A stretch of 64,000 bases of DNA, from positions 7,149 through 71,148 of IMG/VR virus record IMGVR_UViG_3300002483_000009; one strand, written 5' to 3'. This DNA comes from a virus. The notes under the pieces were generated by a model. It was not told where the DNA came from. It saw only the letters and a list, made by a program, of their open reading frames with translations, and did no database searches. The position numbers and the translations under genes were made by a program. Each line of letters starts with the position of its first letter. The stretch's first letter is position 1. Shown piece by piece: positions 7,153 to 34,115 of this stretch.

Positions 7153-7155
7153 ATA
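7150..7155 (+). promoter_or_regulatory. Late promoter box TAAATA
   Basis: 7 nt before ATG 7163. Confidence 0.6.
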
Positions 7156-7162
7156 CTCGCAT

Positions 7163-15565: not shown

Positions 15566-15846
15566 TGATAAAATTACTCAAAGAATTTTGGGTAAACAGT
15601 TATAAGACAGATAATTTTGCGTTCTATCTAGAACTGTTTTCCGTAATAGTCACAGTAATGGGTTCTGCAGTCTTGACTTTTACATCACCTCATCCTATAA
15701 TGAGTATAGTGTTTCCTTTGTACTGGCTAGGGTCTAGCACCATGTGTTGGGCAGGATACAGACGAAGACTTGTTTGGATCGCTTGCCTTACAGGGTGGTT
15801 TACAATTATGAACACAATAGGATTATACAAGGTATTCATACAATGA
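15565..15846 (+). CDS. Small membrane protein (3 TM)
   Basis: Three hydrophobic segments. Confidence 0.65.
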   Translation: MIKLLKEFWVNSYKTDNFAFYLELFSVIVTVMGSAVLTFTSPHPIMSIVFPLYWLGSSTMCWAGYRRRLVWIACLTGWFTIMNTIGLYKVFIQ

Positions 15847-19359: not shown

Positions 19360-20097
19360 ATGATAGACATCTTAAAAGACATCGTTAAGCACACGCATGG
19401 ACTGGGATTTTTAGATCTTGTTAAAATTACTGGTGATGACAAAGAAACCAATATCGACAGTATGGCAGAAGACAGATCAGTAATCTTGCAAGGGTCTTTT
19501 CACAAACCACAAGCGGAAATGTCTGGTACGTTTGGTATGCCTCAGATGGGTAAATTAGATATCCATTTAAAGTGTCCTGAGTACAAAGATAAAGCAAAGA
19601 TAACTGTATTGTCCGGCGAAAGAAATGGAGCCACAGTTCCAACAGGTATACACTTTGAGAATGAAAAAGGTGACTTTAAGAACGACTACAGATTTATGAA
19701 TGCTGAGATAATCAACGAGAAACTTAAGACTGTGAAGTTTAAGGGAGTTAAGTGGGACGTTGAAATAGAACCAACAGTGGCAAGTGTACAAAGATTCAAC
19801 TTCCAGGCAACAGCAAACACAGAACACAATTCATTCGTTGTAAGAACCGAAGATGGAAACCTGATATTCACATTCGGAGATCAAGCATCACATGGTGGTG
19901 AGTTTACGTTTGCAACTGACGTTAAGGGCACTCTTAACAAAGGTTGGAGTTGGCCGGTAGGACAAGTATTGCAGATCTTGAAACTATCTGATTCAGCGAA
20001 AGTCATGTTGCACTTCTCAAACGAGGGTGCTATGATGGTTTCTGTTGATTCAGGACTAGGCAAGTATCAATATATTATACCAGCACAGGCGCAGTAA
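19360..20097 (+). CDS. Probable DNA sliding clamp (gp45/PCNA-like)
   Basis: 245 aa alpha/beta pattern ending YQYIIPA; close to the polymerase. Confidence 0.55.
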   Translation: MIDILKDIVKHTHGLGFLDLVKITGDDKETNIDSMAEDRSVILQGSFHKPQAEMSGTFGMPQMGKLDIHLKCPEYKDKAKITVLSGERNGATVPTGIHFENEKGDFKNDYRFMNAEIINEKLKTVKFKGVKWDVEIEPTVASVQRFNFQATANTEHNSFVVRTEDGNLIFTFGDQASHGGEFTFATDVKGTLNKGWSWPVGQVLQILKLSDSAKVMLHFSNEGAMMVSVDSGLGKYQYIIPAQAQ

Positions 20098-21545
20098 TGA
20101 CTGAACAGAGTAGTAAGCAGGAACACTTAGGAGAGTTAAGTAGAGACTTTGCTGTATTCCTGCCTGCTATTTCGAACTTTTACAATACTTTCATATCAAA
20201 ACAAAGAGTATCAGAGGGCAAACACATAGCCGAAGAAAGAATTCCTAAAACATTCGAACACGGGGTAGAGTCATTGAACTTTATAAATCCAGACAAAGGA
20301 ATGTTCACTTATCCTACCGCATTGTATTCGGCAGGACATGCCTGTCTTGATATGGATAAGGTTGCAGACAGAGATCATATGTTTGTAAACAGAGATAGAA
20401 AGTTCAGTACAATAGTAGGCGACTCAGGTGGATATCAAATCGGCAAAGGTGTAATCAAATTTGATTGGAAAGACTTTGAAGGTAACAAAGCAAACAAAGT
20501 GAGATCTGATATACTGAACTGGCTAGAACTGACAAGCGATTGGGCAATGACACTAGACGTACCAACATGGGCGGCAGATGATTTGAACAGTCCTAAAACA
20601 GGGTTGAAAAGTTTTCAAGACACACTAGATGGAACAATATACAACAACAAATTTTTTCAAAAGAATAGATTAGGACAAACTAAACTATTGAACGTGCTAC
20701 AAGGCGACGATTGGAACACTGCACAGATATGGTATGATGCTGTAAAAGATTTCGAATTCGAAGGATGGGCAATGGGTGGTATCAATATGTGTGATATGGA
20801 AGTAATGCTCAAACGCCTAATCATAATGAGAGATGAAAAGAAACTTGACGGCAAAGATTGGATGCACGTACTGGGTACATCACAGATGGATTGGGGGTGT
20901 TATCTTACACAGGTACAGCGACAGGTTAGAAAACATATCAATCCAAATTTCACAATAAGTTTTGATAGTGCATCAGCATTTTTATCAACAGCGAACGGAC
21001 TTGTTTACACACACAACTCATTTGCCAATGACAGATTCTCATTCGTTATGGACAAGGCGCCGGATGACAAGAAATTGAAAGGTTCCGAAATACAATTTCC
21101 ATTCGATAGCGGTGTCGGACGTAGATTGAAGATGAAGGACGTGTGTTGGTATGGTGAGAAGGATCTAAACAAGAATGGTAAAATTGGTGCAACCAGTTGG
21201 GACAGTTTCAGTTATGTGTTAATGATGGCCCACAACGTATACAATCAAATCAGAGCGATACAGATAGCAAATGATTTAAATGATATCGAATCAATCAAAT
21301 ACAGACCAGAAGTAAAACATTGGCGGAAAACAAAAGCGTCAGACAAAACTGACGAGCCAAGTATATACGTTCCTAGGAATATATTGTATTTCAACACCCT
21401 AGTCGAAGAAGTATTCACAAGTGAGACCCCCATGGAAGTCATAAGCAATGCATCAAGTTATTTGGCAGACATTAGAGGCAACAGATGGGCAAGAGCAACA
21501 GGCGGTGGTAAAGGCACAAACAATTTCAGTTCATTATTCGAATAG
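20097..21545 (+). CDS. tRNA-guanine transglycosylase-like protein (DpdA-like 7-deazaguanine inserting enzyme)
   Basis: GDSGGYQ, TLDVP, NVLQG, HVLG and SFDSAS TGT motifs. Confidence 0.8.
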   Translation: MTEQSSKQEHLGELSRDFAVFLPAISNFYNTFISKQRVSEGKHIAEERIPKTFEHGVESLNFINPDKGMFTYPTALYSAGHACLDMDKVADRDHMFVNRDRKFSTIVGDSGGYQIGKGVIKFDWKDFEGNKANKVRSDILNWLELTSDWAMTLDVPTWAADDLNSPKTGLKSFQDTLDGTIYNNKFFQKNRLGQTKLLNVLQGDDWNTAQIWYDAVKDFEFEGWAMGGINMCDMEVMLKRLIIMRDEKKLDGKDWMHVLGTSQMDWGCYLTQVQRQVRKHINPNFTISFDSASAFLSTANGLVYTHNSFANDRFSFVMDKAPDDKKLKGSEIQFPFDSGVGRRLKMKDVCWYGEKDLNKNGKIGATSWDSFSYVLMMAHNVYNQIRAIQIANDLNDIESIKYRPEVKHWRKTKASDKTDEPSIYVPRNILYFNTLVEEVFTSETPMEVISNASSYLADIRGNRWARATGGGKGTNNFSSLFE

Positions 21546-21553
21546 GAGGAAGC

Positions 21554-21769
21554 ATGGCAACTGGTAACTTTAAGAAAAACAAAAGGCTAAAAAAGTTGAT
21601 TGACCATCACACCTATCTAAATAAGAAGGTAGAGGAACTTACCAAAGATAGGAAAAAAGATAGAAGTGATGAAAGCAAACAAATACTGATGCGTTTGAAG
21701 AAAACCAAATTGGCAACGAAGGACGCAATCGCTTCAGCAAAAGCAAAACTTGGTTTGACAAACAAGTAA
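21554..21769 (+). CDS. DUF465/YdcH-like small coiled coil
   Basis: RLKKTKLATKDAI; AGGAGG SD. Confidence 0.55.
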   Translation: MATGNFKKNKRLKKLIDHHTYLNKKVEELTKDRKKDRSDESKQILMRLKKTKLATKDAIASAKAKLGLTNK

Positions 21770-21782
21770 TTTGTAGTATAAT
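21755..21782 (+). promoter_or_regulatory. Sigma70-type promoter
   Basis: TTGACA-16nt-TATAAT; ATG 21789 lies 6 nt later. Confidence 0.7.
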
Positions 21783-21788
21783 AGAAAC

Positions 21789-22319
21789 ATGGACAGAGAT
21801 TACAAAACAGGCAAGAGTGATAGTATAGGTATATTTTCAGGATTGGAAGTAGAACACACTCCAGCATATGGCAAACAGACACTATTCCTAGCAAGAAACG
21901 ATTTAACATTTCATAAAATTAAAGAAATTGCGGAAAAGGTAAATGCAGAAGCCATTTACTATGGTGCAAACAGAACATACATGCATAACCACGGAATGCA
22001 ACTGGCACAAATGAAAAAATTTATCGAGGACGGTTATTTTGTAACTGTTGATTATGATTACAGCATACACAAAGAAGTAAAAGAAAAATTTAATATGTTA
22101 TGGAACAATGAAAAATTCATTCCATTCTGTTCAGTAATATTTCCAAATAGTGAAGAAGATGATCAACTTTGCATAAAGGTTGATGATGTCGATTTCAACA
22201 AAACTAATCCAGGAGTTTGGACGATGAGCATGAATCATTTCAAGCAGTCAGCAGGATTCACATCTTGGAAAGAATACAAACAAGACGAACCAATAGAGGA
22301 GAAACAATGGGCAACGTAA
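21789..22319 (+). CDS. Hypothetical protein in the deazaguanine cluster
   Basis: 176 aa between the TGT-like and QueD-like genes. Confidence 0.75.
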   Translation: MDRDYKTGKSDSIGIFSGLEVEHTPAYGKQTLFLARNDLTFHKIKEIAEKVNAEAIYYGANRTYMHNHGMQLAQMKKFIEDGYFVTVDYDYSIHKEVKEKFNMLWNNEKFIPFCSVIFPNSEEDDQLCIKVDDVDFNKTNPGVWTMSMNHFKQSAGFTSWKEYKQDEPIEEKQWAT

Positions 22320-22780
22320 TAGATGACATGTATAATGTTCCAGATGTTGAGACTAAAAGAGAACAAGCACTAAAGGAACAAGCGGCAAAAGGATCAAAAA
22401 TGATATGGGTTACATTCAGGAAAGAAGGTATCCACAAATATCCAGCGGCGTTGGACGATCCAAAATTAAAAACTGGTGATATGTATGATGTATCATTTCT
22501 AGGATATCCACACAGACACATATTCCACTTCAAAGTGGCCATAGAAGTGTTTCATGACGACAGGGACATAGAGTTCATACAATTCAAAAGATGGATGGAA
22601 AATATGTATGCAGATGGCACAATGAAACTTGATTTTAAATCTTGTGAAATGATATCAGATGATTTATACACAGCGATAGCAAAAAGATATCCAGGAAGAA
22701 AAATTGAAATAGACGTAAGCGAAGATGGTGAAAATGGAAGCCATGCGGTTTACGAAGTGCCAGTAATGGGCGGAATATAA
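22307..22780 (+). CDS. queD: QueD-like / 6-pyruvoyltetrahydropterin synthase-like T-fold protein
   Basis: EGIH...PHRHIFH metal His residues, SCE, VSEDGENG; SD GAGGAG before ATG 22307. Confidence 0.65.
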   Translation: MGNVIDDMYNVPDVETKREQALKEQAAKGSKMIWVTFRKEGIHKYPAALDDPKLKTGDMYDVSFLGYPHRHIFHFKVAIEVFHDDRDIEFIQFKRWMENMYADGTMKLDFKSCEMISDDLYTAIAKRYPGRKIEIDVSEDGENGSHAVYEVPVMGGI

Positions 22781-23109
22781 TGAAAGAGATTCATATACAA
22801 CAAAAACGAGCAACAACTAGAATGGGACATTTACCCGTAGAGGGTGGTGGCTTGAATGCTGGATATGATACAGTTGATGCGGTGGCAAACATCTGCACAA
22901 CGGCAGGTAATCTTGGCATGAAGTATGGCAAGGACTTTATCTGGGCATACGCAGGATACGAAGAAGTAGGGGACGATCTTGAAGATTGTATTACACTTAT
23001 GGTTAAGGAAGACAAATACGAATCGTTCTTGCAACTTGCCATTCAAAATAATCACAAAATAAAACATACAAACACAGGAACAGTAAAACTTATAAAGGAG
23101 AGAACATAA
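22780..23109 (+). CDS. Hypothetical protein
   Basis: 109 aa coupled ORF. Confidence 0.7.
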   Translation: MKEIHIQQKRATTRMGHLPVEGGGLNAGYDTVDAVANICTTAGNLGMKYGKDFIWAYAGYEEVGDDLEDCITLMVKEDKYESFLQLAIQNNHKIKHTNTGTVKLIKERT

Positions 23110-23661
23110 ATGAAAGTACCATACACAAATTTTAAAACTAGAACAGGCGACGACACAGCAGTAGGTGGTTGCGGATTTATAGGTGGTGAATGGAAAGACG
23201 TAGACACAGTTGAAATTTTTGATAACAAGAAAATTGTCGTTTTTGCACTTCCAGGAGCATTTACGCCCACTTGTAGTTCACAGCAGTTGCCAGGTTATGA
23301 AGAACTGTATGATGAAATCAAAGCACAGGGTGTCGACGAAATTTACTGTCTTTCAGTAAACGATGCTTTTGTAATGAATGCTTGGTTTAAAAATCAAGAT
23401 ATCAAGAAGGTCAAGCCAATAGGAGATGGTGAAGGTGTTTTTACACAAGGTGCAGGATTTCTTGTAAGCAAACCGGCACAGGGTTTCGGAATGAGATCAT
23501 GGAGATATTCTATGTATGTCGAAAACGGAACTATTGTAAAACAGTTTGTTGAAGAAGGACAAAACAATTCAAGTGAAGACAATGATCCATTTGAAGTATC
23601 AGATGCAAAAACCATGTTGGAATTCTTGAAAGACCTTAAAGCAAAAAGGGGAAATGTATAA
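23110..23661 (+). CDS. Peroxiredoxin (Prx5 type)
   Basis: LPGAFTPTCS, SVNDAFVM, RSWRY. Confidence 0.92.
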   Translation: MKVPYTNFKTRTGDDTAVGGCGFIGGEWKDVDTVEIFDNKKIVVFALPGAFTPTCSSQQLPGYEELYDEIKAQGVDEIYCLSVNDAFVMNAWFKNQDIKKVKPIGDGEGVFTQGAGFLVSKPAQGFGMRSWRYSMYVENGTIVKQFVEEGQNNSSEDNDPFEVSDAKTMLEFLKDLKAKRGNV

Positions 23662-23974
23662 ACCATTACCAGACGGATTGACTGTGAGGGAATCTGATGT
23701 GCAGGGTCTCGGACTATTTGCAACAAAGGATTTCGACGCTGACGTTGTGTTAGGAATAGTGCATATTCGGAATAAAAATTTTCCACATGGAGCAATTAGA
23801 ACTGCCTTAGGAGCATTTTACAATCATTCAGATAATCCGAATTGTAGGAATGTAAAAGGTTTTTGGCATCAATTACCAGTACATTACCTAATGACTACCA
23901 AAACAATCAAGGCCGGAGATGAACTTACAGCAGAATATAGTTTGTATAAAGATTTCAGTGACAAATGGGATTAA
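23654..23974 (+). CDS. SET-domain protein (lysine methyltransferase-like)
   Basis: GLGLFA, YNHSDNPN, IKAGDELTAEY. Confidence 0.8.
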   Translation: MYKPLPDGLTVRESDVQGLGLFATKDFDADVVLGIVHIRNKNFPHGAIRTALGAFYNHSDNPNCRNVKGFWHQLPVHYLMTTKTIKAGDELTAEYSLYKDFSDKWD

Positions 23975-23986
23975 AGGAGTTATAAT
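23958..23986 (+). promoter_or_regulatory. Sigma70-type promoter
   Basis: GTGACA-17nt-TATAAT; ATG 23993 lies 6 nt later. Confidence 0.6.
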
Positions 23987-23992
23987 AAACGT

Positions 23993-25159
23993 ATGAAGAT
24001 ATTTTACATGGGATTAGAATCTTATCAAGCAAGATACACTTTTCAATTGACTGACTGGACAAAAAGAGCATATGACAAACGTGGCGTGAAGTATGAAATT
24101 GTTCCAGGCGAAACAATAGATGATTCAGAAGCAATAGTAACAGGACAGGTGCTAGATGCACATGGCAGAAGTTATTTCAGCATGAGCCAGATGATGAACT
24201 TGGTCAAGATGCTGAAGGCAGGAGAGATCACAAGTAAGGACGCAATTTTCTTTGAGGATATGTTCCAACCAGGAATGGAATCACTTCCTTATATTTTACA
24301 ACAGACACCTGAGAAGTACAGACCAACAATATACTTGCGTTGTCTGGCACAGGCAATTGATCCTGATGATTTCGTACACGTATGGGGTATGAGCAAATGG
24401 ATGAGTTTATACGAGCAGATGTGCAACGAGATTCCAAATGTTGTAATATTGGCCAGCAATGAAGAAATGGTGGCAAACATGAGAATAGCAAACTGGAAGG
24501 CACCCATATACAACATATCAGGATTGAGTTTTGGAAAAGAAGAGGTTCAAGGTAGAGTAGAACAGAAGCCATTCATAGAAAGAAAACAGAGAGTGGTTTT
24601 TGGTGCAAGATGGGATCAAGAGAAGCAACCACAATTCTTTATGGATCTAATTCAAGCATATAAAAAGAAACATCCAGAGACAGAATTTGCAATATGTCAG
24701 GGTGGTCCTTTGAGATCAAACAATGACTATTACGTGAAAGAAGCCAAATATCTAGAAAAAGAAGGATTACTTACAATTCATGAAAATTTGAAAAAAAATG
24801 ATTACTACAATATACTTGCTGATTCGAGAGTACTATTCAATTGTGCTTTACAGGACTGGACATCTAACACTGTGTCTGAAGCAGATGCTTTAGGCTGTAA
24901 TGTTCTTTTTCCGGCATACAGATCTTTCCCAGAAGTATTTGCAAATGACCACACAAGATTGTATGTGCCATGGTCACAGGAAGATGCAATGAACAAGTTA
25001 GAATTACTATTAAGCAAACCATCCCCTAGTATGGGTCAAATATCAGATTGGACAAACGGCACAATCGACAGAATGTTAGACATCATGACAGGCAAGGGTG
25101 AACAATGGAGAAGAGATGGACAACACTATAGAACACCAGTATCAGAGCCCAAGTATTAA
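23993..25159 (+). CDS. GT-B fold glycosyltransferase (GT4-like)
   Basis: ARWDQEKQP, then ALQDWTSNTVSEA...GC...P...SFPE. Confidence 0.75.
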   Translation: MKIFYMGLESYQARYTFQLTDWTKRAYDKRGVKYEIVPGETIDDSEAIVTGQVLDAHGRSYFSMSQMMNLVKMLKAGEITSKDAIFFEDMFQPGMESLPYILQQTPEKYRPTIYLRCLAQAIDPDDFVHVWGMSKWMSLYEQMCNEIPNVVILASNEEMVANMRIANWKAPIYNISGLSFGKEEVQGRVEQKPFIERKQRVVFGARWDQEKQPQFFMDLIQAYKKKHPETEFAICQGGPLRSNNDYYVKEAKYLEKEGLLTIHENLKKNDYYNILADSRVLFNCALQDWTSNTVSEADALGCNVLFPAYRSFPEVFANDHTRLYVPWSQEDAMNKLELLLSKPSPSMGQISDWTNGTIDRMLDIMTGKGEQWRRDGQHYRTPVSEPKY

Positions 25160-26153
25160 AGGTCTGAGCAAGGCAGTGCTAGTCACGGGCGGAGCCGGAT
25201 ATGTGGGTTCACATACCTGTAAGTTTTTGGTCAAGAACGGATTCACACCAATAACCATAGACAGAGATCTAAGATTAAAACACAAACCTGTTTCATTTGG
25301 TCCATCATATGATATAAATCTACCACAGGAAATCGACAGGCTTGACGAGATAATAAAAAGATACAATGTAACAAGTTGTATACATTTTGCCGGCAGTGCC
25401 TCTGTGTCCGAATCAGTGGTAAATCCATCGGAATATTATAAGAACAATGTTATTGCAACTGTTGTACTTCTAGACAAGTTGATAGAGTGTGGTGTGAAAA
25501 CATTTGTTTATAGTTCTAGTGCGGCCACTTATGGTGATCCAGGATTGAAAATGTGTAAAGAATCTGACTGGGCAAAACCAATTAGTTCTTATGGAGCCAG
25601 TAAACTGATGATGGAAATGATATGCAAAGATTATTTGAGAGCATATGGACTATCAAGTGTTGGCTTAAGATATTTCAATGCGGCTGGTGCCGATCCAGAT
25701 GCAGAAGTAGGAGAATTAAGAGATCGTGAAACACATATAATACCACTTGCAGTGGCGGCCGCCAAACAAGGTAAAACGTTCAAGATGTTTGGTGACAAGT
25801 ATGACACTCCAGATGGTTCATGTGTAAGAGATTATGTCCATGTAATGGATCTTGCAGATGCACACGTTAAGGCGTTGAACTATGCCAATGACAATTCAGT
25901 GTCAGAAGTATTCAATTTAGGATCAGGAGCACCTGCGTCTAACAAAGAATTGCTTGATGCTGTGCAGAAACATGCAGGCGCTATGAACATCGAGATACAT
26001 GACAACAGACCGGGAGATCCAGCATACCTGGTCGCTGACATATCAAAGGTAAAAAGCATTTTAGGTTGGGAACCAGCACAGAGTTCTATTGACAACGTGG
26101 TGGCAACTGCTGTAAAATGGTATAACAAGACTCACAAGAAGGAGATACAATGA
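25116..26153 (+). CDS. galE: UDP-glucose 4-epimerase
   Basis: VTGGAGYVGSH, SSSAATYG, YGASK, LRYFNAAGA, RDYVHV. Confidence 0.92.
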   Translation: MDNTIEHQYQSPSIKGLSKAVLVTGGAGYVGSHTCKFLVKNGFTPITIDRDLRLKHKPVSFGPSYDINLPQEIDRLDEIIKRYNVTSCIHFAGSASVSESVVNPSEYYKNNVIATVVLLDKLIECGVKTFVYSSSAATYGDPGLKMCKESDWAKPISSYGASKLMMEMICKDYLRAYGLSSVGLRYFNAAGADPDAEVGELRDRETHIIPLAVAAAKQGKTFKMFGDKYDTPDGSCVRDYVHVMDLADAHVKALNYANDNSVSEVFNLGSGAPASNKELLDAVQKHAGAMNIEIHDNRPGDPAYLVADISKVKSILGWEPAQSSIDNVVATAVKWYNKTHKKEIQ

Positions 26154-26380
26154 CAGACTCAGAAGAAAAGCAAAGAGCACTAGACGCCTCTATGGAAAAT
26201 GAGAGTGTGGGACACAAAGACAACTATGGTCCTATGGTGCAAATATCAATCAAAGAATATGACAAGTTGAAAGAAAGATCTAAATATATCACAGACAGAG
26301 ACATGATTGCCGTGATAGACAAAATTGAAGAATTGGTTAGAGCATTGAGAAAACATATCGTTAGATTGGACGTAGAATAA
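26150..26380 (+). CDS. Hypothetical protein
   Basis: 76 aa coupled ORF; AGGAG SD. Confidence 0.65.
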   Translation: MTDSEEKQRALDASMENESVGHKDNYGPMVQISIKEYDKLKERSKYITDRDMIAVIDKIEELVRALRKHIVRLDVE

Positions 26381-27090
26381 TGGACGACTCCTTAAAAGAC
26401 AGTTGGGTTCCGGAAGGACCTATCAGTAAGAAGATAAAAGACAGATTGCAGAAGGCAGGCAAGAGATTCCACTCCAATGACAACATCTCAGAATTCATAG
26501 AGGACGGTGAGATGGACCTATTGCAGGCAGAGGTACAAGAAAAACTTCAAGGCGTGTTAGACAGCCTTGTGATTGACACAGAAAACGATCACAACACACA
26601 GGAAACTGCCAAACGTGTGGCCAAGATGTACATAAGAGAAACATTTGGTGGTAGGTTCAAACCAGCACCAAGGGTTACAAGTTTTCCCAACATGGGTTAC
26701 AAGAGTATGTACACCAGTGGTCCAATATCAATTAGATCAACGTGTGCCCACCACTTCCAGAACATTGTGGGTAATGCCTGGGTAGGTATAATTCCCAATG
26801 GTGAAGTTATTGGATTGAGTAAATTCAACAGGATCGTACATCACATCGTGGAGAGACCGCAGATACAAGAAGAGATGACAACACAGATTGCAGATGAATT
26901 GAAAAAGTATGCAAAGACTGACAACCTTGCAGTAGTGGTCAAAGCAGAACATCACTGCATGACGCACAGAGGTGTAAGAGAACACGAATCAGACATGACA
27001 ACTGCAATTATGTTGGGTGCATTCAAGGAAGATCCTGCTACAAGAGATGAATTCTACAAAATCTGTATGAGTATGAAGGGACATGACTAG
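26380..27090 (+). CDS. folE: GTP cyclohydrolase I
   Basis: STCAHH, GLSKF, RPQIQE, HHCMTHRGV. Confidence 0.95.
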   Translation: MDDSLKDSWVPEGPISKKIKDRLQKAGKRFHSNDNISEFIEDGEMDLLQAEVQEKLQGVLDSLVIDTENDHNTQETAKRVAKMYIRETFGGRFKPAPRVTSFPNMGYKSMYTSGPISIRSTCAHHFQNIVGNAWVGIIPNGEVIGLSKFNRIVHHIVERPQIQEEMTTQIADELKKYAKTDNLAVVVKAEHHCMTHRGVREHESDMTTAIMLGAFKEDPATRDEFYKICMSMKGHD

Positions 27091-27310
27091 CAAATCTAAA
27101 AAAGACCAACAATTGGAGATGGGATTCAGCGAAGGAATAACATACGGTGGAGACCTAGACACCAGTTTCACTTACAGTTTTGGAGATTTAGATTTAGGAA
27201 ACCCAGAAGAGGATATGCGAGAAAAATATCCTGCACTGAAACAGGCATGGGAACACTATCAAAGTATTTTAGAAGTATGCAAAACAAAGGAACAAGAAGA
27301 TGAGGATTAA
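27083..27310 (+). CDS. Hypothetical protein
   Basis: 75 aa; KYPALKQAWEHY. Confidence 0.65.
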   Translation: MTSKSKKDQQLEMGFSEGITYGGDLDTSFTYSFGDLDLGNPEEDMREKYPALKQAWEHYQSILEVCKTKEQEDED

Positions 27311-28349
27311 TTACGACGCAAAATTGAATTTTGAGGACGTGCTACTACAACCAAAACGTTCTACATTGTCATCACGTAAAGATGTAGACATGACTCGTAA
27401 CTTTACATTTAGGAACTCTGGCAAACAGATGAACTTCTTGCCTATCTTTGCGAGCAACATGGATGGTGTTGGAACCTTCTCAATGGCAAAAGTATTGCAA
27501 GAGTACAAAATGATGACTGTGATCACAAAAACTACCGGCATAGAAGAATGGCGGAAAGCAGTTGGCAGTGGTGTAAGGTTACAAAGTGTATCGGTTTGCA
27601 CAGGCACAAATATTATGTGGGATAAGGAAGCACAGGATTGGAAGACAATGCAAGATGTATTGAAAAGTTTTCCTGACATAAAAATGATCACTGTTGATGT
27701 TGCAAACGCCTATCACCAGAACATGGTGGATTTTATTAAAAAGGTACGTGATGAATATCCTACAAAAATTATTGTTGCAGGAAATGTTGTAACCCCTGAA
27801 ATGACAGAAGAACTTATTATCAACGGTGCTGATGTTGTCAAAATTGGTATTGGTCCTGGATCAGTATGTACAACAAGAACAATGACAGGTGTTGGCGTAC
27901 CACAATTCAGTGCGATATTAGATTGTGCTGACGCGGCCAACGGTGTAGATGGACACATAATGGCGGATGGAGGTTGTGTGTACCCGGGAGATATAGCCAA
28001 AGCATTTGGTGGCGGTGCCCACATGGTAATGATAGGTGGCATGTTGGCAGGCCATGACGAGTCAGAGCAGGAAATAGTCGACGGCAAAGTAGAATTTTAC
28101 GGAATGAGCTCGGATCGTGCAAGAGAAAAACATGGCAAACGTAAAGATGGATACAGAGGCAATGAAGGCAGATTAATAAGTCTGCCGTACAGAGGTCCTG
28201 TGCAACACACAGTAGAAGATATACTGGGCGGAGTAAGAAGTGCCTGCACATACATAGGTGCAAGAAGATTGAAAGATATGCCCAAGTGTGCAAGTTTCGT
28301 GACTACAAATAATGTTATAAACAGGATATATGAAAAATACGACAAATAA
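27300..28349 (+). CDS. guaC: GMP reductase
   Basis: DVLLQPKRSTLSSR, SNMDGVG, GIGPGSVCTTR, ADGGC, FYGMSS, GGVRSACTY; no CBS domains. Confidence 0.92.
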   Translation: MRINYDAKLNFEDVLLQPKRSTLSSRKDVDMTRNFTFRNSGKQMNFLPIFASNMDGVGTFSMAKVLQEYKMMTVITKTTGIEEWRKAVGSGVRLQSVSVCTGTNIMWDKEAQDWKTMQDVLKSFPDIKMITVDVANAYHQNMVDFIKKVRDEYPTKIIVAGNVVTPEMTEELIINGADVVKIGIGPGSVCTTRTMTGVGVPQFSAILDCADAANGVDGHIMADGGCVYPGDIAKAFGGGAHMVMIGGMLAGHDESEQEIVDGKVEFYGMSSDRAREKHGKRKDGYRGNEGRLISLPYRGPVQHTVEDILGGVRSACTYIGARRLKDMPKCASFVTTNNVINRIYEKYDK

Positions 28350-28662
28350 ACCAATCGAACCTATAACAGAAAAACTTGACGACAAGATCAAGGCCCTTAA
28401 TTCATCAAGAGTTTACAAAAAAGTTACACCTCGAGGTGACCTATCATGGTATATCAAATGGGCAAGTAGTATCACATTGATTGTGGCAATGCTTTTCACT
28501 TCTGCAAATATGTTTCCTGTGAATTTATGGATTGCAAATTTAGGATTTATAGGTTGGTTAATAGTTGGTATGCTGTGGCACGACAGATCATTAATAGTTT
28601 TAAACGCAGTATCATTAGCAATTTATTCTTTAGGTATTTTAAATTATTATTATGGAAGTTAA
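28330..28662 (+). CDS. Small membrane protein (3 TM)
   Basis: Hydrophobic C-terminal two thirds. Confidence 0.7.
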   Translation: MKNTTNKPIEPITEKLDDKIKALNSSRVYKKVTPRGDLSWYIKWASSITLIVAMLFTSANMFPVNLWIANLGFIGWLIVGMLWHDRSLIVLNAVSLAIYSLGILNYYYGS

Positions 28663-29110
28663 GAAGAATTATTTTACAACAGGACAGATGCGTAATGCAT
28701 TAATTCAAATAGAAGATAAAATGGTGCACTCCAACTGGATGCCAAGCATTATACTAGGAATTAATAGGGGAGGTTGCATACCGGGAGTATATCTTTCACA
28801 CAGACTAAACACTGCCCACGAAGTGCTAGATATAAGATTAAGAGACCATAAAGCAAAACCAAACCTAAGTGTGCTAGAAAAAGCATTTGCATTTCAAAAG
28901 AAAATACTAATCATAGATGACATAAACGATTCTGGTGCAACATTCAAGTATATAGAAGAAAATTTTGGCAAACATGAAGAACGAATAAAATTTGCCGCAC
29001 TTATACATAACAAACCTTCAGAAGTAAAAGTAGATTACCATGGATACGAGATCAACAAAGACGAAGTGCCCAGTTGGATAGTATTTCCATGGGAAGAGTG
29101 GGACAAATAA
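28652..29110 (+). CDS. Type I phosphoribosyltransferase (xanthine/guanine PRT-like)
   Basis: GINRGG, ILIIDDINDSGAT PRPP loop, WIVFPWE. Confidence 0.88.
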   Translation: MEVKKNYFTTGQMRNALIQIEDKMVHSNWMPSIILGINRGGCIPGVYLSHRLNTAHEVLDIRLRDHKAKPNLSVLEKAFAFQKKILIIDDINDSGATFKYIEENFGKHEERIKFAALIHNKPSEVKVDYHGYEINKDEVPSWIVFPWEEWDK

Positions 29111-29123
29111 ACTAAAGGTTGTG

Positions 29124-29153
29124 TTGACACAATCGCGGTAATCATAGTACAAT
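29124..29153 (+). promoter_or_regulatory. Sigma70-type promoter
   Basis: TTGACA-18nt-TACAAT; SD AAGGAGG before ATG 29188. Confidence 0.6.
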
Positions 29154-29187
29154 TAGCATACATTAATTAAACCTTAAGGAGGACTTA

Positions 29188-29835
29188 ATGTTCAAAACAT
29201 TAATGGCAGGTGTAGATAAAACACTTGTAAGAAATCTAGTAATTTTACACACGGCAGTTATTGCCTTATCGAATTATCTAGTCACAATCAGATTTGATTT
29301 ATTCCCCGGAGCAGAACTTCCATTTTTTGGATCGTTCCCATTGGCGGCGGCGGCATTCACATTTCCGATTGTTGTAGTAGCGACTGACTTGACGGTTAGG
29401 TTGGTTGGCAAAGAAGCAGGAAGGGCCGTTGTTGCAATGGCAATCATTCCGGCGATCGTTGCATCAGTACTTGTACTGTTGGCATTAGGTGACCCACACG
29501 CATACAGAGTTGGATTTGCAAGTGGTACTGCTTATGCTATTGGTACCATGCTTGATGTGTACGTGTTCCAAGCAATCAGAGAAAGATCGGACAATTGGTG
29601 GGCGGCTCCGGCACTTTCAACTATCGCGGCAAACATAATTGATACATACTCGTTCTTTTATGTTGCGTTCGCAGGTTCGCTTGACGCAGAAGGTAACCTA
29701 TCGTGGATTGGTGCAAACTGGCACGTGGTTGCACAAAACAACACATTGACTAAAATTGTAGTTGGTCTAATAGTATTCTTACCAGCATATGGTATCCTAT
29801 TAAACAGGTTACAAGTTATAGGCAAAAAGAAATAG
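29188..29835 (+). CDS. yhhQ: VUT/YhhQ family queuosine precursor (preQ0/preQ1) transporter
   Basis: SNYLV, FTFP...ATDLTVRL.G, LDVYVF, IDTY.FF..AF; multi-TM. Confidence 0.85.
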   Translation: MFKTLMAGVDKTLVRNLVILHTAVIALSNYLVTIRFDLFPGAELPFFGSFPLAAAAFTFPIVVVATDLTVRLVGKEAGRAVVAMAIIPAIVASVLVLLALGDPHAYRVGFASGTAYAIGTMLDVYVFQAIRERSDNWWAAPALSTIAANIIDTYSFFYVAFAGSLDAEGNLSWIGANWHVVAQNNTLTKIVVGLIVFLPAYGILLNRLQVIGKKK

Positions 29836-29836
29836 T

Positions 29837-29920
29837 GTGAAAGACAAAATATACACAGGCGCCGGTATTATTGCAGTAATATTAGCCGTGACGGCTGTTG
29901 TGGCATTCACACTATTGTGA
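29837..29920 (+). CDS. 27 aa single-TM peptide
   Basis: GTG start: MKDKIYTGAGIIAVILAVTAVVAFTLL. Confidence 0.4.
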   Translation: MKDKIYTGAGIIAVILAVTAVVAFTLL

Positions 29921-29925
29921 GTTCT

Positions 29926-29947
29926 TGGGGGAGTTTTTTCTCCCCCA
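29926..29947 (+). terminator. GC-rich hairpin, possible terminator or stabiliser
   Basis: TGGGGGAG-TTTTTT-CTCCCCCA, a perfect 8-bp stem; weak U-tract. Confidence 0.5.
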
Positions 29948-29976
29948 TTGACAAAATATCTAAATACATATATAAT
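29948..29976 (+). promoter_or_regulatory. Consensus sigma70 promoter with a TAAATA box in the spacer
   Basis: TTGACA-17nt-TATAAT; TAAATA at 29961-29966. Confidence 0.75.
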
Positions 29977-29988
29977 TAAAAGTACATC

Positions 29989-30387
29989 ATGGGAAACAAA
30001 GCAGGTAAAATTTGGGGACAAACAGAACTCATTGAAGCAAATGGTTCTTGCGAATTCCACAGGATAGATTTTGTAAAAGGTGGCACGTGTTCAAAGCACA
30101 AACACGAATACAAATGGAACGGTTTCTACGTGATGTCAGGCGAGATGAAAATCCGTGTATGGCAGAAGGACTATGAATTGATAGACGAAACTATACTTAA
30201 AGCCGGTGACTACACAGCCGTAAAACCAGGACTATATCACTCATTCGAGGGATTGGAAGACGGTGTTGCGTTTGAATTGTACTGGGCGGAATTCAGACAC
30301 AACGATATACAACGAGAAAGTGTTGGTCATTTGAAGACAGATAACATAGTTAGACTGGACAAGAAAAATGACAAAACAAGAAAATAA
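29989..30387 (+). CDS. Cupin-fold protein
   Basis: CSKHKHEYKWNGFYVMSG ... VKPGLYHSF. Confidence 0.8.
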   Translation: MGNKAGKIWGQTELIEANGSCEFHRIDFVKGGTCSKHKHEYKWNGFYVMSGEMKIRVWQKDYELIDETILKAGDYTAVKPGLYHSFEGLEDGVAFELYWAEFRHNDIQRESVGHLKTDNIVRLDKKNDKTRK

Positions 30388-31384
30388 AATTCCCATAAAA
30401 GGCTACGCAACTTTTCATCCATTGAAACATTGTTTGATCGGATCTGGATTCAAAGCAGAATGGTTCAGAAACCTTCCCATCTATAAAAATAATAAAATTA
30501 TGGACCCCCTAAGGCGTATTGCAGAAGAAACCGAGGAAGATTTTGAGACACTTGAAAAAATATTGAAAGAAGCCAATATCAAAACTTACCGTGCCAGGTT
30601 GAATATGGAAAAGTATGGATCTCTACAAAACATTTATAGACCTCCAATGGCACCAAGAGATCACTTTGCAGTTCTTGGAGAAAAACTTTATGCAGTTGGT
30701 GGGATATCAGAAGGATATGCAGATGTGTTGAAACAGATAGACAGGAAAAATCTTATAATAGAAAAGGCAGGGTTAGAACCAATATCTACTGCACACATTT
30801 GTAGAGTTGGAAAGGATATATGGTGGGATATATCAAATAAGATGGACAAGGATTTGATAGAAAAGTACAAGACACTCTGGACTGAAGAAGGATTCAGGGT
30901 TCACCTTTCTCACAGAGGACATCATACAGATGCTGAATTTTGTGTTGTTAAGCCAGGATGTATAGTATCTATGTACGATGTGCAGGATTATAAAAAAGAA
31001 TTTCCGAATTGGGACGTTCAGTATGTCGCAGATAAGTCCTGGGACAAATTAAGTTCATTCATGCAGATGAAAGATAAGGTCGGAGGACGTTGGTGGTTAA
31101 AAGGAGAAGAACATAACGATGAATTAATTCACTTCGTTAACACCTGGTTAAATGATTGGGTAGGTTTTGTGGAAGAAACTGTGTTTGATGTCAACATGCT
31201 GTCACTTGACGAAAATACAATCATATGTAACAATTATAATAAAGATGTATTTGATTATTTTAAAAAACATAAAGTTGATCCAATCATATTCAACCCAAGA
31301 CATAGATTCTTTTGGGACGGTGGAATACATTGTATAACACAGGATTTATATAGAGAAGGAACCATGGAGGACTATTTTGGATAA
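30368..31384 (+). CDS. Amidinotransferase family protein (glycine / inosamine-phosphate amidinotransferase-like), paralog 1
   Basis: PRD, HTD, DVNML, DGGIHCITQD. Confidence 0.8.
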   Translation: MTKQENKIPIKGYATFHPLKHCLIGSGFKAEWFRNLPIYKNNKIMDPLRRIAEETEEDFETLEKILKEANIKTYRARLNMEKYGSLQNIYRPPMAPRDHFAVLGEKLYAVGGISEGYADVLKQIDRKNLIIEKAGLEPISTAHICRVGKDIWWDISNKMDKDLIEKYKTLWTEEGFRVHLSHRGHHTDAEFCVVKPGCIVSMYDVQDYKKEFPNWDVQYVADKSWDKLSSFMQMKDKVGGRWWLKGEEHNDELIHFVNTWLNDWVGFVEETVFDVNMLSLDENTIICNNYNKDVFDYFKKHKVDPIIFNPRHRFFWDGGIHCITQDLYREGTMEDYFG

Positions 31385-32405
31385 GATACCTATCAAATCC
31401 TATGCAAACTTTCACCCATTGAAACATTGTATAATTGGGTCAGGATTTCAAGCAGACTGGTTTCATGACTTACCTATATACAAGAACAAAAAAATAATGG
31501 ATCCTTTGAAACGTATTGCAGAAGAAACTGAGGAAGACTATCAGATGCTTGTTAAATTATTGCAAGATGCAGGTGTGCAAACTTATAGACCAGAATTAAA
31601 CATGGAAAAAATACAATCATTGCAGAACATCTATAGACCTCCTATGATGCCTAGAGATAGTTTTGCTGTGTTAGGTGAAAAATTTTATTCTTGTACTGCA
31701 GATGGTAGGAAAGGTTATACAGATATTATCAAACGTATAGATAAGAAAAACTTATATTTAAAACAGATCGATAGTGCAGTATCAAGTGCTAACATAATGA
31801 GAGTGGGCAAAGACATATTTTGGGATCATCACGAGGGAGACAAAAGCAACGGGTTAGTCGATGGCTATCCAAAGATGTACAAGGAGATACTTGACGATTT
31901 ACAACAACAAGGCTTCCGCGTTCATCACACGTATAGAGGTTATCATTCAGATGCTGTGATGTGCATAGTAAAACCAGGGTGCATTGTGTCATTGCACGAT
32001 ATACAAAACTACAAAGAAACATTTCCAGGATGGGACGTGTTGTACATACCAGATCAATCTTGGAACAGTGTAAGTGATTTTGGAAAAATAAGAAAAAAAG
32101 TAGGTGGCAGATGGTGGTTAAAGGGAGAAGAACATAACGATCAATTGATAGAATTTGTAAACACATGGCTGAACGATTGGGTAGGTTACGTAGAAGAAAC
32201 TGTGTTTGATGTCAATATGTTGCAACTTGACGAAAACACAATTATATGCAACAATTATAATAAAGAAATATTTGAATTTTTTAAGAAACACAAGGTTGAA
32301 CCAATAATATTCAACTTTAGGCATAGGTTTTTTTGGGATGGTGGAATACATTGCATAACACAAGACCTATATAGAGAAGGGACAATGGAGGATTATTTTG
32401 GCTGA
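31377..32405 (+). CDS. Amidinotransferase family protein, paralog 2
   Basis: PRD, HSD, DGGIHCITQD; TTG start with GGAGG SD. Confidence 0.8.
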   Translation: MDKIPIKSYANFHPLKHCIIGSGFQADWFHDLPIYKNKKIMDPLKRIAEETEEDYQMLVKLLQDAGVQTYRPELNMEKIQSLQNIYRPPMMPRDSFAVLGEKFYSCTADGRKGYTDIIKRIDKKNLYLKQIDSAVSSANIMRVGKDIFWDHHEGDKSNGLVDGYPKMYKEILDDLQQQGFRVHHTYRGYHSDAVMCIVKPGCIVSLHDIQNYKETFPGWDVLYIPDQSWNSVSDFGKIRKKVGGRWWLKGEEHNDQLIEFVNTWLNDWVGYVEETVFDVNMLQLDENTIICNNYNKEIFEFFKKHKVEPIIFNFRHRFFWDGGIHCITQDLYREGTMEDYFG

Positions 32406-32865
32406 CATTTATCACATATTCGCAGATCATAATGCAGATGTAAACGCAATGGAGTTTACAACAAAGATGCGTAAATTTCTCGACCAGATGGTTGAAATGA
32501 AAAGAATGAATTCCTATAGACTTACAAGAGCAAAACTAGGATTCAGATCAATGAATCTTCCAGAGTTTCACATAATGATGGAGTTTGATAATATGCAACA
32601 ACTAGATGATGCAATGACTTCTGTTATAAGAAATGAAAAGAATATAGAGGAGTCACACGTTGGATTCAACCAACTAGTTGATGTTGAAACAATACAGCAT
32701 TTTCTGTACAGAGATTATCCAGACGATATCAAAATTGAACAACCAAAAGTGCAAGAAAACAAACCAATAGATCCTGAGTTAGAGAAACGTATGAAAGGCA
32801 GTTGGACAGTTGAAGAGATTGTTGAATCAATGAAAAACAGTCATCCGGAGATATGGAAAAAGTAG
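32398..32865 (+). CDS. Hypothetical protein (possibly dimeric alpha-beta barrel)
   Basis: 155 aa; TTG start with GGAGG SD. Confidence 0.65.
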   Translation: MADIYHIFADHNADVNAMEFTTKMRKFLDQMVEMKRMNSYRLTRAKLGFRSMNLPEFHIMMEFDNMQQLDDAMTSVIRNEKNIEESHVGFNQLVDVETIQHFLYRDYPDDIKIEQPKVQENKPIDPELEKRMKGSWTVEEIVESMKNSHPEIWKK

Positions 32866-33755
32866 AAAAAAAATATTACTATTCTGAAATATTTCACAGC
32901 ATACAGGGTGAAGGACACTACACAGGCGTTCCAACCGCATGGATAAGATTCTTCCTTTGCAATTTACAATGCAATGGCTTCGGTCAAAAAGATCCAACGG
33001 ACCCAAGCACATATGAACTGCCGTTTGAGAATTTTGATGTGTCAAGTGTAAAACGTGTTGAGGACTTGCCTGTGTGGGACAAAGGCTGTGACAGTTCTTA
33101 CACATGGGCAAAAAAATTTAAAGGTCTTATGGGACAGGAGACTCCCACTGTGTTGGCAGACAAACTTGTTGACATCATAAAGACAGAATCAAATCCAGAG
33201 GGTAAATTTTTACATCCGTTTTCTAAACAACATCAGCATCTGTGTTTCACAGGTGGCGAGCCTTTGATGATTACAGGACAGGCCGCAGTAGTTGGAATAT
33301 ACAGGGCACTTGAAAAACGAAATAATCTTCCAGGGTCTATGACATTCGAAACAAATGGCACACAGATATTGAAAGAGCCTTTTAAGGAGTGGGTAAGAAA
33401 CATAGACACAGAAGTGTTCTTCAGTGTAAGTCCAAAACTGTTCACGGTGTCGGGCGAGAAAACAGAAAAAGCAATCAAGCCTGAGAACGTGGCCGAATAC
33501 TACAAACTATCCAAAGCAGGCCAGTTAAAATTCGTTGTTGGATCCGCAGACAAGGAATGGGACGAAATGGAAAGCACAATCAAGAAATTCAGAGACGCTG
33601 GTGTAGATTGGCCAGTCTGGGTGATGCCAACAGGTGCTAGGGAAGAAGAACAGACAGCAACGGCTGGTAAAGTGGCGGAGAAGGCATTCAAGAAAGGGTA
33701 TAATGTGGCCGCAAGAGTCCATGTGTATCTATTTGGTAATGCTATTGGAACATAG
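32853..33755 (+). CDS. queE: 7-carboxy-7-deazaguanine synthase (radical SAM)
   Basis: SEIFHSIQGEG, CNLQC...CDS, TGGEP, ETNG, SVSPK, RVHVYLFG. Confidence 0.9.
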   Translation: MEKVEKKYYYSEIFHSIQGEGHYTGVPTAWIRFFLCNLQCNGFGQKDPTDPSTYELPFENFDVSSVKRVEDLPVWDKGCDSSYTWAKKFKGLMGQETPTVLADKLVDIIKTESNPEGKFLHPFSKQHQHLCFTGGEPLMITGQAAVVGIYRALEKRNNLPGSMTFETNGTQILKEPFKEWVRNIDTEVFFSVSPKLFTVSGEKTEKAIKPENVAEYYKLSKAGQLKFVVGSADKEWDEMESTIKKFRDAGVDWPVWVMPTGAREEEQTATAGKVAEKAFKKGYNVAARVHVYLFGNAIGT

Positions 33756-33791: not shown

Positions 33792-34115
33792 ATGAAGGTA
33801 AAGAAAACAAAAAAGACTACAATTAAGAAAAATAAAAAAGATTCTAAAAAAAGTCAAGAACCAATGGTTAAAGTTCTCAACTTGAATGTGAATCCTGAAA
33901 ACCCAAGAAATGGTTTCTTCGAACTAGATTGGAATGATGAGTTCGTGAATATGTTACAACAATCAGGCTATCAAGGGCAAACTGAGGAAGAGATAGTGGA
34001 CAGATGGTTCCAAACACTTTGCAGAACTATTGGAAATGAACAAGGTATTGACGTCACTGGATCTGGTTACGTTCAGATCAACAGGAGAGACGACGGCAAA
34101 ACTGAGGTGTCGTAA
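33792..34115 (+). CDS. Hypothetical phage protein
   Basis: 107 aa; FELDWNDEFV. Confidence 0.7.
   Translation: MKVKKTKKTTIKKNKKDSKKSQEPMVKVLNLNVNPENPRNGFFELDWNDEFVNMLQQSGYQGQTEEEIVDRWFQTLCRTIGNEQGIDVTGSGYVQINRRDDGKTEVS

Follow-up and report, generated by a model that had tools for sequence, protein, structure and literature searches.

The closest described counterparts of the system considered here are phages that combine DpdA3 with DpdL, with phiST as the prototype. As given in the main text and Suppl. DS1 of Cui, Hutinet et al., Nucleic Acids Research (NAR) 2023 (PMC10516641), it is established that FolE, QueD and QueE synthesize 7-carboxy-7-deazaguanine (CDG) and that phiST DNA contains 2′-deoxy-7-deazaguanine (dDG), at 302,000 per 10^6 nt, with all G replaced and dG not among the canonical peaks. 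The same source proposes DpdL as the decarboxylase of CDG and DpdA3 as the inserting enzyme; DpdL is distinguished by LxxxHRHxF in place of the CxxxHGH of QueD (section 16), and DpdA3 plus DpdL plus FolE/QueD/QueE without QueC is the published configuration giving dDG. Here we analysed a 64,000-nt stretch of viral DNA (hereafter the window), bases 7149–71,148 of the 71,148-base IMG/VR virus record IMGVR_UViG_3300002483_000009, in which a cluster of 7-deazaguanine genes is bounded by the genes of a family B DNA polymerase (PolB) and a 5′-3′ exonuclease. The record, a fragment from an uncultured ocean phage, has a CheckV completeness of about 20%, in keeping with a jumbo phage genome of some 350 kb. 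The cluster probably encodes a system of the DpdA3/DpdL type, by which a 7-deazaguanine takes the place of guanine in the phage’s own DNA. Its core is of the known kind, that is, a DpdA3/DpdL dDG system; a conserved GT4-like glycosyltransferase (GT) gene, a gene for a conserved protein termed unk176 and a purine phosphoribosyltransferase (PRTase) gene are the new addition.

The open reading frames (ORFs) of the window were scanned with Pfam, PHROGs and NCBIfam (Table 1). The 482-AA protein with the DSGGYQ motif matched no model in these three collections, and a single-sequence phmmer search of the PDB gave chance matches only. Its AlphaFold2 (AF2) model (predicted local distance difference test, pLDDT, 92.2; predicted template modelling score, pTM, 0.91) was then compared by fold, and every Foldseek match listed was a tRNA-guanine transglycosylase (TGT), the best with E 7.7e-9. 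VIA-align superposed model residues 15–434 on Thermotoga maritima TGT (2ash_B) with Z 19.5 over 306 residues and a root-mean-square deviation of 4.5 Å, and the archaeosine TGT gave Z 18.9. A profile alignment to the TGT chain 5n6f_A, weak in itself (E 1.7), placed DSGGYQ on DSGGYQ with the LD, QG and GG blocks in register. Among 40 diverse members of the family D109, S110, G112, P156, H257 and D290 are invariant, while G111, Q114 and D154 are kept at ≥90%; D290 sits in an SxDS block common to the DpdA2 of phage ACP17. In TGT a second catalytic Asp serves as covalent nucleophile, a role for which D290 is a candidate.

A tblastn search matched 13 records in total, in which this protein has its nearest named relatives in PA5oct-like Pseudomonas jumbo phages, in Phosso and in a Vibrio jumbo phage. 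It shares 40% identity over 98% of its length with PA5oct QCG76197.1 (EST35_0316), which is tabulated under DpdA3 in Suppl. DS1 (PMC10516641), and its family aligns with ACP17 DpdA2 by hhalign at 96.5% (E 1e-9). The family is large: at least 5,963 proteins among 8,000 candidates scored were homologues at E ≤1e-5, many of them marine, and 935 clusters at the 50% level were found at E ≤0.001. To compare the surroundings, 80 related viral loci were searched with all window proteins. The stop codon of the clamp-like gene overlaps the DpdA3 start (TAATG at 20095–20099); of 81 loci, 77 have a PolB homologue upstream of DpdA3 and 80 have the clamp-like gene. The initial annotation had described a TGT-like gene coupled to a probable clamp gene near the DNA polymerase as the centre of a phage 7-deazaguanine DNA-modification cluster, and both the coupling and the cluster are borne out by this overlap, by the TGT fold and by the homology to PA5oct DpdA3. 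By annotation of its Phosso homologue, the product encoded upstream is a probable sliding clamp. Homology and gene context point to the 482-AA protein as a DpdA3-type 7-deazaguanine DNA transglycosylase with DNA as its likely substrate.

The ORF two genes downstream, described at first as QueD-like, reads L-GYP-HRH-I-F, which is the exact DpdL signature. In tblastn comparisons it was 59% identical to ACP17 gp125 (YP_009609725; E 4e-39), 54% to PA5oct EST35_0318 (QCG76199) and 32% to phiST CGPG_00067 (E 1e-7), and all three are tabulated as DpdL in Suppl. DS1 (PMC10516641). The start ATG at 22307 is preceded by an AGAGGAG ribosome-binding site, and the conserved domain begins near the ATG at 22400. 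The ORF had no PF01242 match; one look-alike cluster in the Atlas, at 0.95, has PF01242 in 10% of its members. We rejected this ORF as the QueD of the pathway, as it lacks the Cys of CxxxHGH and a canonical QueD (PTPS, PF01242) is encoded elsewhere in relatives: of 14 related records 8 have it, outside the cluster and, in the three measured, 33–55 kb from DpdA3. In one close relative (G010) the distance is 46 kb, upstream of DpdA3, so that a gene in the same position would fall off the start of the window’s record.

In the relatives compared, DpdL occurs together with DpdA, FolE and QueE and without QueC. No QueC was found in 13 related records or in the window’s own 71,148-base record, and no QueF in 14 records, while control genomes were matched in both searches. 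The absence from a record of about 20% completeness carries weight only because both genes are also missing from the relatives, among them the complete PA5oct genome and a 353-kb record with a completeness rating of 99%. For ArcS, no window ORF matched such a Pfam family in the general scans, and no search by name was made. The initial annotation had taken the missing QueC and QueF as a sign of new chemistry. The absence of QueC and QueF from the record is confirmed, yet since the QueD-like ORF is DpdL in a published QueC-less configuration, the missing genes are already explained. The assignment of FolE and QueE as the makers of CDG agrees with our identification of both (PF01227 and phrog_2076, respectively). 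As a separate observation, the QueE of one close relative (L097) is 79% identical to that of the window, whereas those of five others (L096, L098, L099, L100 and L101) are only 36–37% identical; two divergent versions at one position suggest cassette replacement of QueE within the clade.

We examined which genes of the cluster are kept across related loci. Seven close relatives were extended and the ORFs of the loci were searched with iterated hidden Markov models; the core was counted in 23 loci spanning DpdA3 to the exonuclease gene (FEN), a set not de-replicated and from which loci ending before FEN were dropped. DpdA3, DpdL, the GT4-like protein, QueE and a further protein, unk107, are present in 23/23 loci and unk176 in 22/23, followed by PRTase (19/23) and FolE (18/23). 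GuaC, GalE and the cupin were found in 6/23 each, YhhQ in 5/23 and an amidinotransferase in 2/23. In the close clade, composed of the window and the seven relatives, all eight members have GT4, GalE, FolE, GuaC, PRTase, cupin and QueE, with the redoxin in 7/8, YhhQ in 6/8 and the amidinotransferase and SET genes in 3/8 each; DUF6614 occurs there only in the window and in L095, L099 and L100. The gene order is kept in dozens of loci, which rules out a chance arrangement. GalE, GuaC and the cupin are genes of the close clade only, and no pathway step is assigned to the accessory genes, namely those for the amidinotransferases, DUF6614, SET, redoxin and YhhQ. Thus, of the two sugar genes expected to be conserved next to the TGT-like gene, the GT4-like gene is, in every locus counted, and GalE is not, outside the close clade.

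The protein unk176 is a conserved part of the module. A homologue is encoded in ACP17 (gp122; 29% identity, E 6e-15) directly before DpdA2. Its profile gave chance matches only in the PDB, Foldseek returned a mixed list with E 0.058 at best for its AF2 model (pLDDT 75), and in the Atlas it fell into unnamed viral clusters only. The annotated ‘glycosylase’ in front of DpdL in Phosso was considered as a relative and rejected, the two being unrelated.

The GT4-like glycosyltransferase occurs in strict association with the DpdA/DpdL module, and this part of our results goes beyond what is in print. In the phage collection a GT homologue was found in 17 records, and all 17 are among the 28 DpdL-bearing records; GT and DpdL lie within about 3 kb of each other in each lineage whose coordinates were compared. 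An independent collection, genome_contigs, yielded 27 GT loci in bacterial assemblies, with DpdA3-like genes in 21 and DpdL in 18 within 8 kb and at least one deazaguanine gene in all 27. The window GT is 23% identical to PA5oct EST35_0317 over 350 residues (E 3e-15), which in turn is 37% identical to ACP17 gp124 (E 4e-60). When a 25-member GT profile was run against five records, it matched two, Phosso (E 4e-130, annotated as a glycosyltransferase and adjoining DpdL) and ACP17 (E 2e-78), and found nothing in phiST, RHph_I1_18 or Ahp1. Hence DpdL systems exist in GT-positive and GT-negative forms. In these 25 members R206, E210, K211, Q212 and E296 are invariant, and the consensus LQETLGISxYE is a segment that may correspond to the EX7E nucleotide-sugar/catalytic motif. 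The GT4-like enzyme is presumably an integral member of the module and acts in the pathway. The measured chemistry (phiST, phi13:1 and phi19:2; PMC10516641) comes from the GT-negative form.

The best GT match, with 65.5% identity, was in Synechococcus phage BUCT-ZZ01 (L088, 12001–13158), a freshwater T4-like cyanophage with a compact cluster in the order QueE, XGPRT, hypothetical, QueD, FolE, hypothetical, DpdA-like, DpdL and GT. The DpdA-like protein of this phage aligns with the window family by hhalign at 93.6%, while a neighbouring 447-AA protein was rejected as a DpdA candidate, not being DpdA-like. The DpdL proteins of the window and of BUCT-ZZ01 are only 38% identical, which suggests that the GT, being far closer, was transferred from one lineage to another separately from DpdL. 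Pairs of DpdA3-like and GT4-like genes were also noted in cultured bacteria, namely Methylobacterium (L113, L114 and L117), Ochrobactrum (L126), Pelagibacterium (L123 and L128) and Azospirillum (L115). The Ochrobactrum pair adjoins a phage-type integrase, the Methylobacterium pair comes with DpdL and adjoins a RecD2-type helicase, and in six such loci DpdL was not detected within 8 kb. These pairs are integrated elements or islands and could serve as culturable test systems.

Two genes of the cluster had been overlooked, encoding a GuaC-type GMP reductase and the 6-oxopurine PRTase. Homologues of the PRTase occur in only 12 phage records, and 10 of these are deazaguanine phages: BUCT-ZZ01, five phiST-type Cellulophaga records and four Flavobacterium ‘immuto’ records, of which Immuto_2-6A carries fdPreQ1 at 345,000 per 10^6 nt (PMC10516641). 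The PRTase tracks DpdA3 phages with complete replacement of G. The main text of PMC10516641 makes no mention of a PRTase; the terms ‘glycosyl’, ‘phosphoribosyl’, ‘YhhQ’ and ‘PA5oct’ do not appear in it. GuaC homologues were found in 56 records from widely differing phages, and none of the 40 listed has DpdL, so that GuaC is better seen as a general purine-pool gene. As a pathway-specific analogue of TubD from tubercidin biosynthesis it was rejected, since it passes the ordinary GuaC equivalog cut-off, is confined to 6 of the 23 loci and is widespread elsewhere.

Taken together with the published route, these genes suggest the following order of steps. FolE would start from GTP, a canonical QueD encoded outside the partial record would follow, and QueE would yield CDG, from which DpdL would strip the carboxyl group to give 7-deazaguanine. 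DpdA3, whose gene is coupled to that of the clamp and lies close to PolB, would then swap G in DNA for 7-deazaguanine. The guanine released could be taken by the PRTase to GMP and on to GTP, which would feed FolE and remove a competitor of the exchange; in the close clade GuaC may drain GMP to IMP. The GT4-like enzyme would most likely put a hexose on the inserted base or its precursor, with GalE possibly shaping its UDP-sugar donor in the close clade.

Compared with phiST (PMC10516641), the locus shares FolE, QueE, the DpdL signature, a DpdA-family enzyme, the lack of QueC and QueF, a polymerase nearby and a purine PRTase. Yet the phiST DpdA has 259 AA against 482 AA in the window and is weakly alignable, and phiST lacks the GT4-like gene and unk176, which are both fixed in the window lineage. 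The window clade adds GalE, GuaC, cupin and YhhQ, whereas the phiST cluster has a MazG-like gene, of which none was seen in the window. The PA5oct-like Pseudomonas jumbo phages (Wroclawvirus) have PolB, a clamp-like gene, DpdA3, the GT4-like gene, DpdL, a weakly matching PRTase-like gene, QueE and FEN in common with the window, and Suppl. DS1 of PMC10516641 tabulates PA5oct with DpdA3, FolE, QueD, QueE and DpdL. Unlike the window, PA5oct lacks unk176, GalE, GuaC, cupin, YhhQ and amidinotransferases, and a distance of about 54 kb separates its FolE and QueD genes from the cluster. Its DNA resists five restriction enzymes with G-containing sites (PMC12191111), a study in which liquid chromatography–mass spectrometry concerned phages F8 and 14-1, not PA5oct. 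As a side observation, the family B polymerase gene of PA5oct (L001, 5608–10834) is annotated as split by a Hef-like homing endonuclease gene, whereas the window polymerase is a single 920-AA ORF.

A third group comprises the DpdA2 plus DpdL phages Acidovorax ACP17, Xanthomonas BUDD/X1 and Burkholderia BCSR5 together with BUCT-ZZ01, all with DpdL and the GT4-like gene within about 3 kb. ACP17 shares the unk176 homologue and BUCT-ZZ01 a PRTase inside its cluster. They differ from the window in that the transglycosylases of ACP17, BUDD and BCSR5 are classed as DpdA2 (Suppl. DS1, PMC10516641), that of BUCT-ZZ01 is unclassified, and the backbones of all four are smaller and unrelated.

Several points weigh against this interpretation of the cluster. 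The window DpdA aligns only weakly with the prototype DpdA3 of phiST (61% probability in hhalign, E 8e-5), and with the better match to ACP17 DpdA2 the DpdA3 subfamily label depends on the table of PMC10516641. That source gives the decarboxylase activity of DpdL as a proposal, and expression of phiST or ACP17 dpdL plus dpdA in E. coli gave no dDG there. Canonical QueD was not found in the window’s own record, and the recycling of guanine by the PRTase is argued from pathway logic. As to the sugar step, the GT4-like profile matched nothing at E ≤1 among PDB sequences, the Pfam GT model was reached (E ≤0.01) by only 5 of 25 family members, and in the window protein a D replaces the E with which the presumed EX7E motif begins in most members. 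7-Deazaguanine has no obvious hydroxyl to accept a sugar. In the literature searched there was no nucleoside chemistry for this phage or for any GT-positive relative.

The proposal that the sugar ends up on the DNA base is a tentative one, less likely than not. In phage T4 the alpha- and beta-glucosyltransferases AGT and BGT are GT-B enzymes that decorate 5-hydroxymethylcytosine in phage DNA; they need the hydroxymethyl group, which dDG lacks. A glycosyltransferase modelled as acting on a 7-deazapurine base is known from huimycin biosynthesis (HuiG; bioRxiv 10.64898/2026.04.15.718813), which by its description is alike in the acceptor, yet differs in using a free base in a secondary-metabolite pathway. 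With somewhat more reserve still, we extend the proposal to GT-positive DpdL phages in general (PA5oct, Phosso, ACP17, BUDD/X1, BCSR5, BUCT-ZZ01 and the marine jumbo lineage), which might carry a sugar-bearing 7-deazapurine made by the GT4-like enzyme and not plain dDG, GalE setting the sugar in the close clade. Candidate bases are hexosyl-7-deazaguanine, substituted at N2 or at a pyrrole carbon, and a glycosyl ester of dCDG, the deoxynucleoside of CDG. In the titles and abstracts searched, deazaguanine bearing a sugar was not reported from DNA, with most subscription journals outside this coverage. A companion possibility is that the PRTase enables complete G replacement, through guanine recycling or through a route at the nucleotide level.

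The DNA may also contain plain dDG only, as in phiST, with the GT4-like enzyme glycosylating some protein or a molecule on the host surface, or else serving as a non-catalytic partner of the long-form DpdA. We regard this as a serious contender, if somewhat short of an even chance. Plain dDG is the sole product measured for any DpdL system (PMC10516641), 7-deazaguanine offers no evident acceptor group, and the separate amino-sugar island of the window (see below) means that sugar genes of this phage need not concern DNA. Nevertheless, the GT adjoins DpdA/DpdL in every lineage examined in three collections, and a surface or protein glycosyltransferase would not be expected to track DpdL in 17 records of 17. 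Moreover, the only systems with measured plain dDG, those of the phiST type, are without the GT.

Less probable is a tubercidin-like nucleotide route, to which we assign a small chance. Here the PRTase would join CDG or 7-deazaguanine to phosphoribosyl pyrophosphate (PRPP), the 7-deaza-GMP formed would be converted to a dNTP for the polymerase to build in, and in the close clade GuaC might deaminate the intermediate to 7-deaza-IMP toward a 7-deazaadenine nucleotide. Such a route would explain complete replacement, and the PRTase and GuaC enzyme types stand together in the window, the PRTase family being present in fully G-replaced phages and inside the BUCT-ZZ01 cluster. The tubercidin pathway of Streptomyces likewise starts from CDG without QueC and uses a PRTase (TubE, acting on CDG and PRPP), a decarboxylase and a GMP-reductase homologue, TubD (PMC6112128; bioRxiv 10.64898/2026.04.15.718813). 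It differs in yielding a free nucleoside antibiotic with no transglycosylase and in its UbiD-type decarboxylase and Nudix hydrolase (PMC6112128); UbiD was found in none of 14 records and no Nudix gene in the general Pfam scans of the window. Unlike TubD, the window GuaC is clade-specific and resembles ordinary GuaC, scoring above the GMP reductase equivalog cut-off, and GuaC is widespread without deazaguanine genes. DpdA, which a purely pre-replicative route would not need, is kept in all loci.

The DpdA3/DpdL reading with exchange in DNA also has to be set against a TGT-like enzyme that modifies host or phage tRNA, a target that the initial annotation had kept in view. The fold and the DSGGYQ motif are indeed of the tRNA-guanine transglycosylase type. 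We consider a tRNA target very unlikely on account of the DpdA3 placement of its homologue by the authors of the family (PMC10516641) and the resistance of PA5oct DNA at G-containing sites (PMC12191111). The gene is moreover coupled to the clamp and adjoins PolB in 77–80 of the 81 loci, and DpdL phages of the phiST group have all their DNA G replaced (PMC10516641).

The two tandem amidinotransferase paralogues are real homologues of this enzyme type, with PDB matches to AGAT (2jdx, E 6.4e-5), SxtG (6u1r, E 3.8e-4), HsvA and StrB1, 5wpi among them (E 7e-3), and with the catalytic Cys segment (GGIHC on GGFHC, HTDAEF on HIDATF). In spite of their place inside the cluster here, they were found in 5 of 19 whole records, 65–78 kb from the cluster in two (G011 and G003), and were absent from the 99%-complete G008 record, PA5oct and BUCT-ZZ01. 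The family is common in marine data on its own (1,721 matches among 2,479 candidates). Their genes form a movable insertion, placed between those for the cupin and DUF6614 and not a part of the module, and with 3 of 8 close relatives and 2 of 23 loci they were rejected as base-tailoring enzymes. The initial annotation had named a lack of co-occurrence with the TGT-like gene in relatives as its refuting condition; the amidinotransferases show this lack and the GT4-like gene does not. The idea that CDG, preQ0 or preQ1 is inserted and then amidinated, and/or galactosylated, to a guanidino-type base is the least likely of all, as this sporadic occurrence does not support it, the phage has no route to an aminomethyl acceptor without QueC and QueF, and import of preQ0 or preQ1, put forward in the initial annotation, finds no support beyond the presence of YhhQ, which could carry it, in 5 of 23 loci.

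The listed cluster genes are real and lie where they had been placed, all on the + strand, as supported by Pfam, PHROGs, NCBIfam, PDB and fold comparisons (Table 1). All genes between 15744 and 43088 are on this strand and packed tightly, and a megablast search of the cluster region against phage records gave no match.

Table 1. Features of the window, with positions counted from its first base, and the matches on which their naming is based.
Feature	Position	Strand	Matches and remarks
Fused cytidylyltransferase-like + NT5C nucleotidase	5616-6788		Accessory
Cu/Zn superoxide dismutase	6977-7717		Accessory
FMN reductase	7780-8382		Accessory
Family B DNA polymerase (PolB)	15744-18506	+	PF00136 E 1.8e-37, PF03104 E 2.2e-17; upstream anchor of conserved block
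Probable sliding clamp	19360-20097	+	phrog_12062 E 6.9e-38; 33% identity, E 3e-47, to Phosso gene annotated sliding clamp
DpdA3-type transglycosylase (predicted), long form, 482 AA	20097-21545	+	TGT fold, DSGGYQ
unk176, conserved protein	21789-22319	+	
DpdL (QueD paralogue)	22307-22780	+	phrog_17812; LxxxHRHxF signature
Peroxiredoxin	23110-23661		
SET protein	23654-23974	+	E 3e-10
Divergent GT4-like (GT-B) glycosyltransferase	23993-25159	+	PF00534 Glycos_transf_1, 31.3 bits vs 26.4 cut-off
UDP-glucose 4-epimerase GalE	25098-26153 (likely start GTG 25176)	+	TIGR01179 328.3 bits vs 262.3
GTP cyclohydrolase I FolE	26380-27090	+	PF01227 E 6.7e-47, 159.7 bits; NCBIfam FolE models below equivalog cut-offs
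GMP reductase GuaC	27300-28349	+	NF003470 462.3 bits vs 397; TIGR01305 435.9, under its 492 cut-off
6-oxopurine PRTase	28652-29110	+	PF00156 E 7.3e-12; PDB 1vdm E 3.6e-16; E. coli XGPRT E 7e-9
YhhQ/Vut_1 queuosine-precursor transporter	29188-29835	+	TIGR00697 89.3 bits vs 50.95; NF008406 below its cut-off
Cupin	29989-30387	+	PF07883 E 3.1e-9; WbuC-family cupin below its cut-off
Two tandem amidinotransferase paralogues	30368-31384, 31377-32405	+	66% identical; PDB AGAT match
DUF6614 protein	32398-32865	+	PF20319 E 1.8e-23
QueE-like radical SAM enzyme (CDG synthase)	32853-33755	+	phrog_2076 E 8.5e-53; NCBIfam QueE models far below cut-offs
5′-3′ exonuclease / RNase H-like FEN	34115-35101	+	PF02739 E 1.6e-22; downstream anchor
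PIG-L deacetylase	41452-42090		Second sugar island
SDR epimerase/dehydratase	42087-43088		Second sugar island
DegT-type aminotransferase	44369-45481	-	Second sugar island
Carbamoyltransferase	45448-46911	-	Second sugar island
Radical-SAM-matching ORFs (four)	48610-49788, 49773-51170, 51761-53050, 54963-56357	-	Two weak; SPASM domains in two of four
Alternative oxidase	51160-51837		E 9e-79

Outside the cluster, a second sugar-tailoring island (41452–46911), separate from the deazaguanine block, encodes a PIG-L deacetylase, an SDR enzyme, a DegT-type aminotransferase and a carbamoyltransferase and looks like an amino-sugar pathway. The region 48610–56357 on the - strand holds four radical-SAM-matching ORFs with an alternative oxidase gene amid them, a set unusual for a phage, and three accessory enzyme genes are found near the start of the window.

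DNA with 7-deazaguanine is a main means of phage escape from restriction enzymes and is now the target of dedicated host defences. The published DpdL route has two gaps, the reconstitution of dDG formation and the means by which DpdA3 attains 100% replacement. The GT, unk176 and PRTase, members of the long-form module on which the main text of the source paper (PMC10516641) is silent, are concrete candidates for the missing parts. If true, a sugar-bearing base would be without precedent in DNA as a glycosylated purine, and it would explain why dpdL plus dpdA failed to form the product in E. coli. GT-positive phages in culture are PA5oct, ACP17, BUCT-ZZ01 and Phosso. As ocean metagenomes are very rich in this lineage, the DpdA3 homologues numbering more than 5,900, its base would be common in marine viral DNA, and it could bias the sequencing of such DNA.

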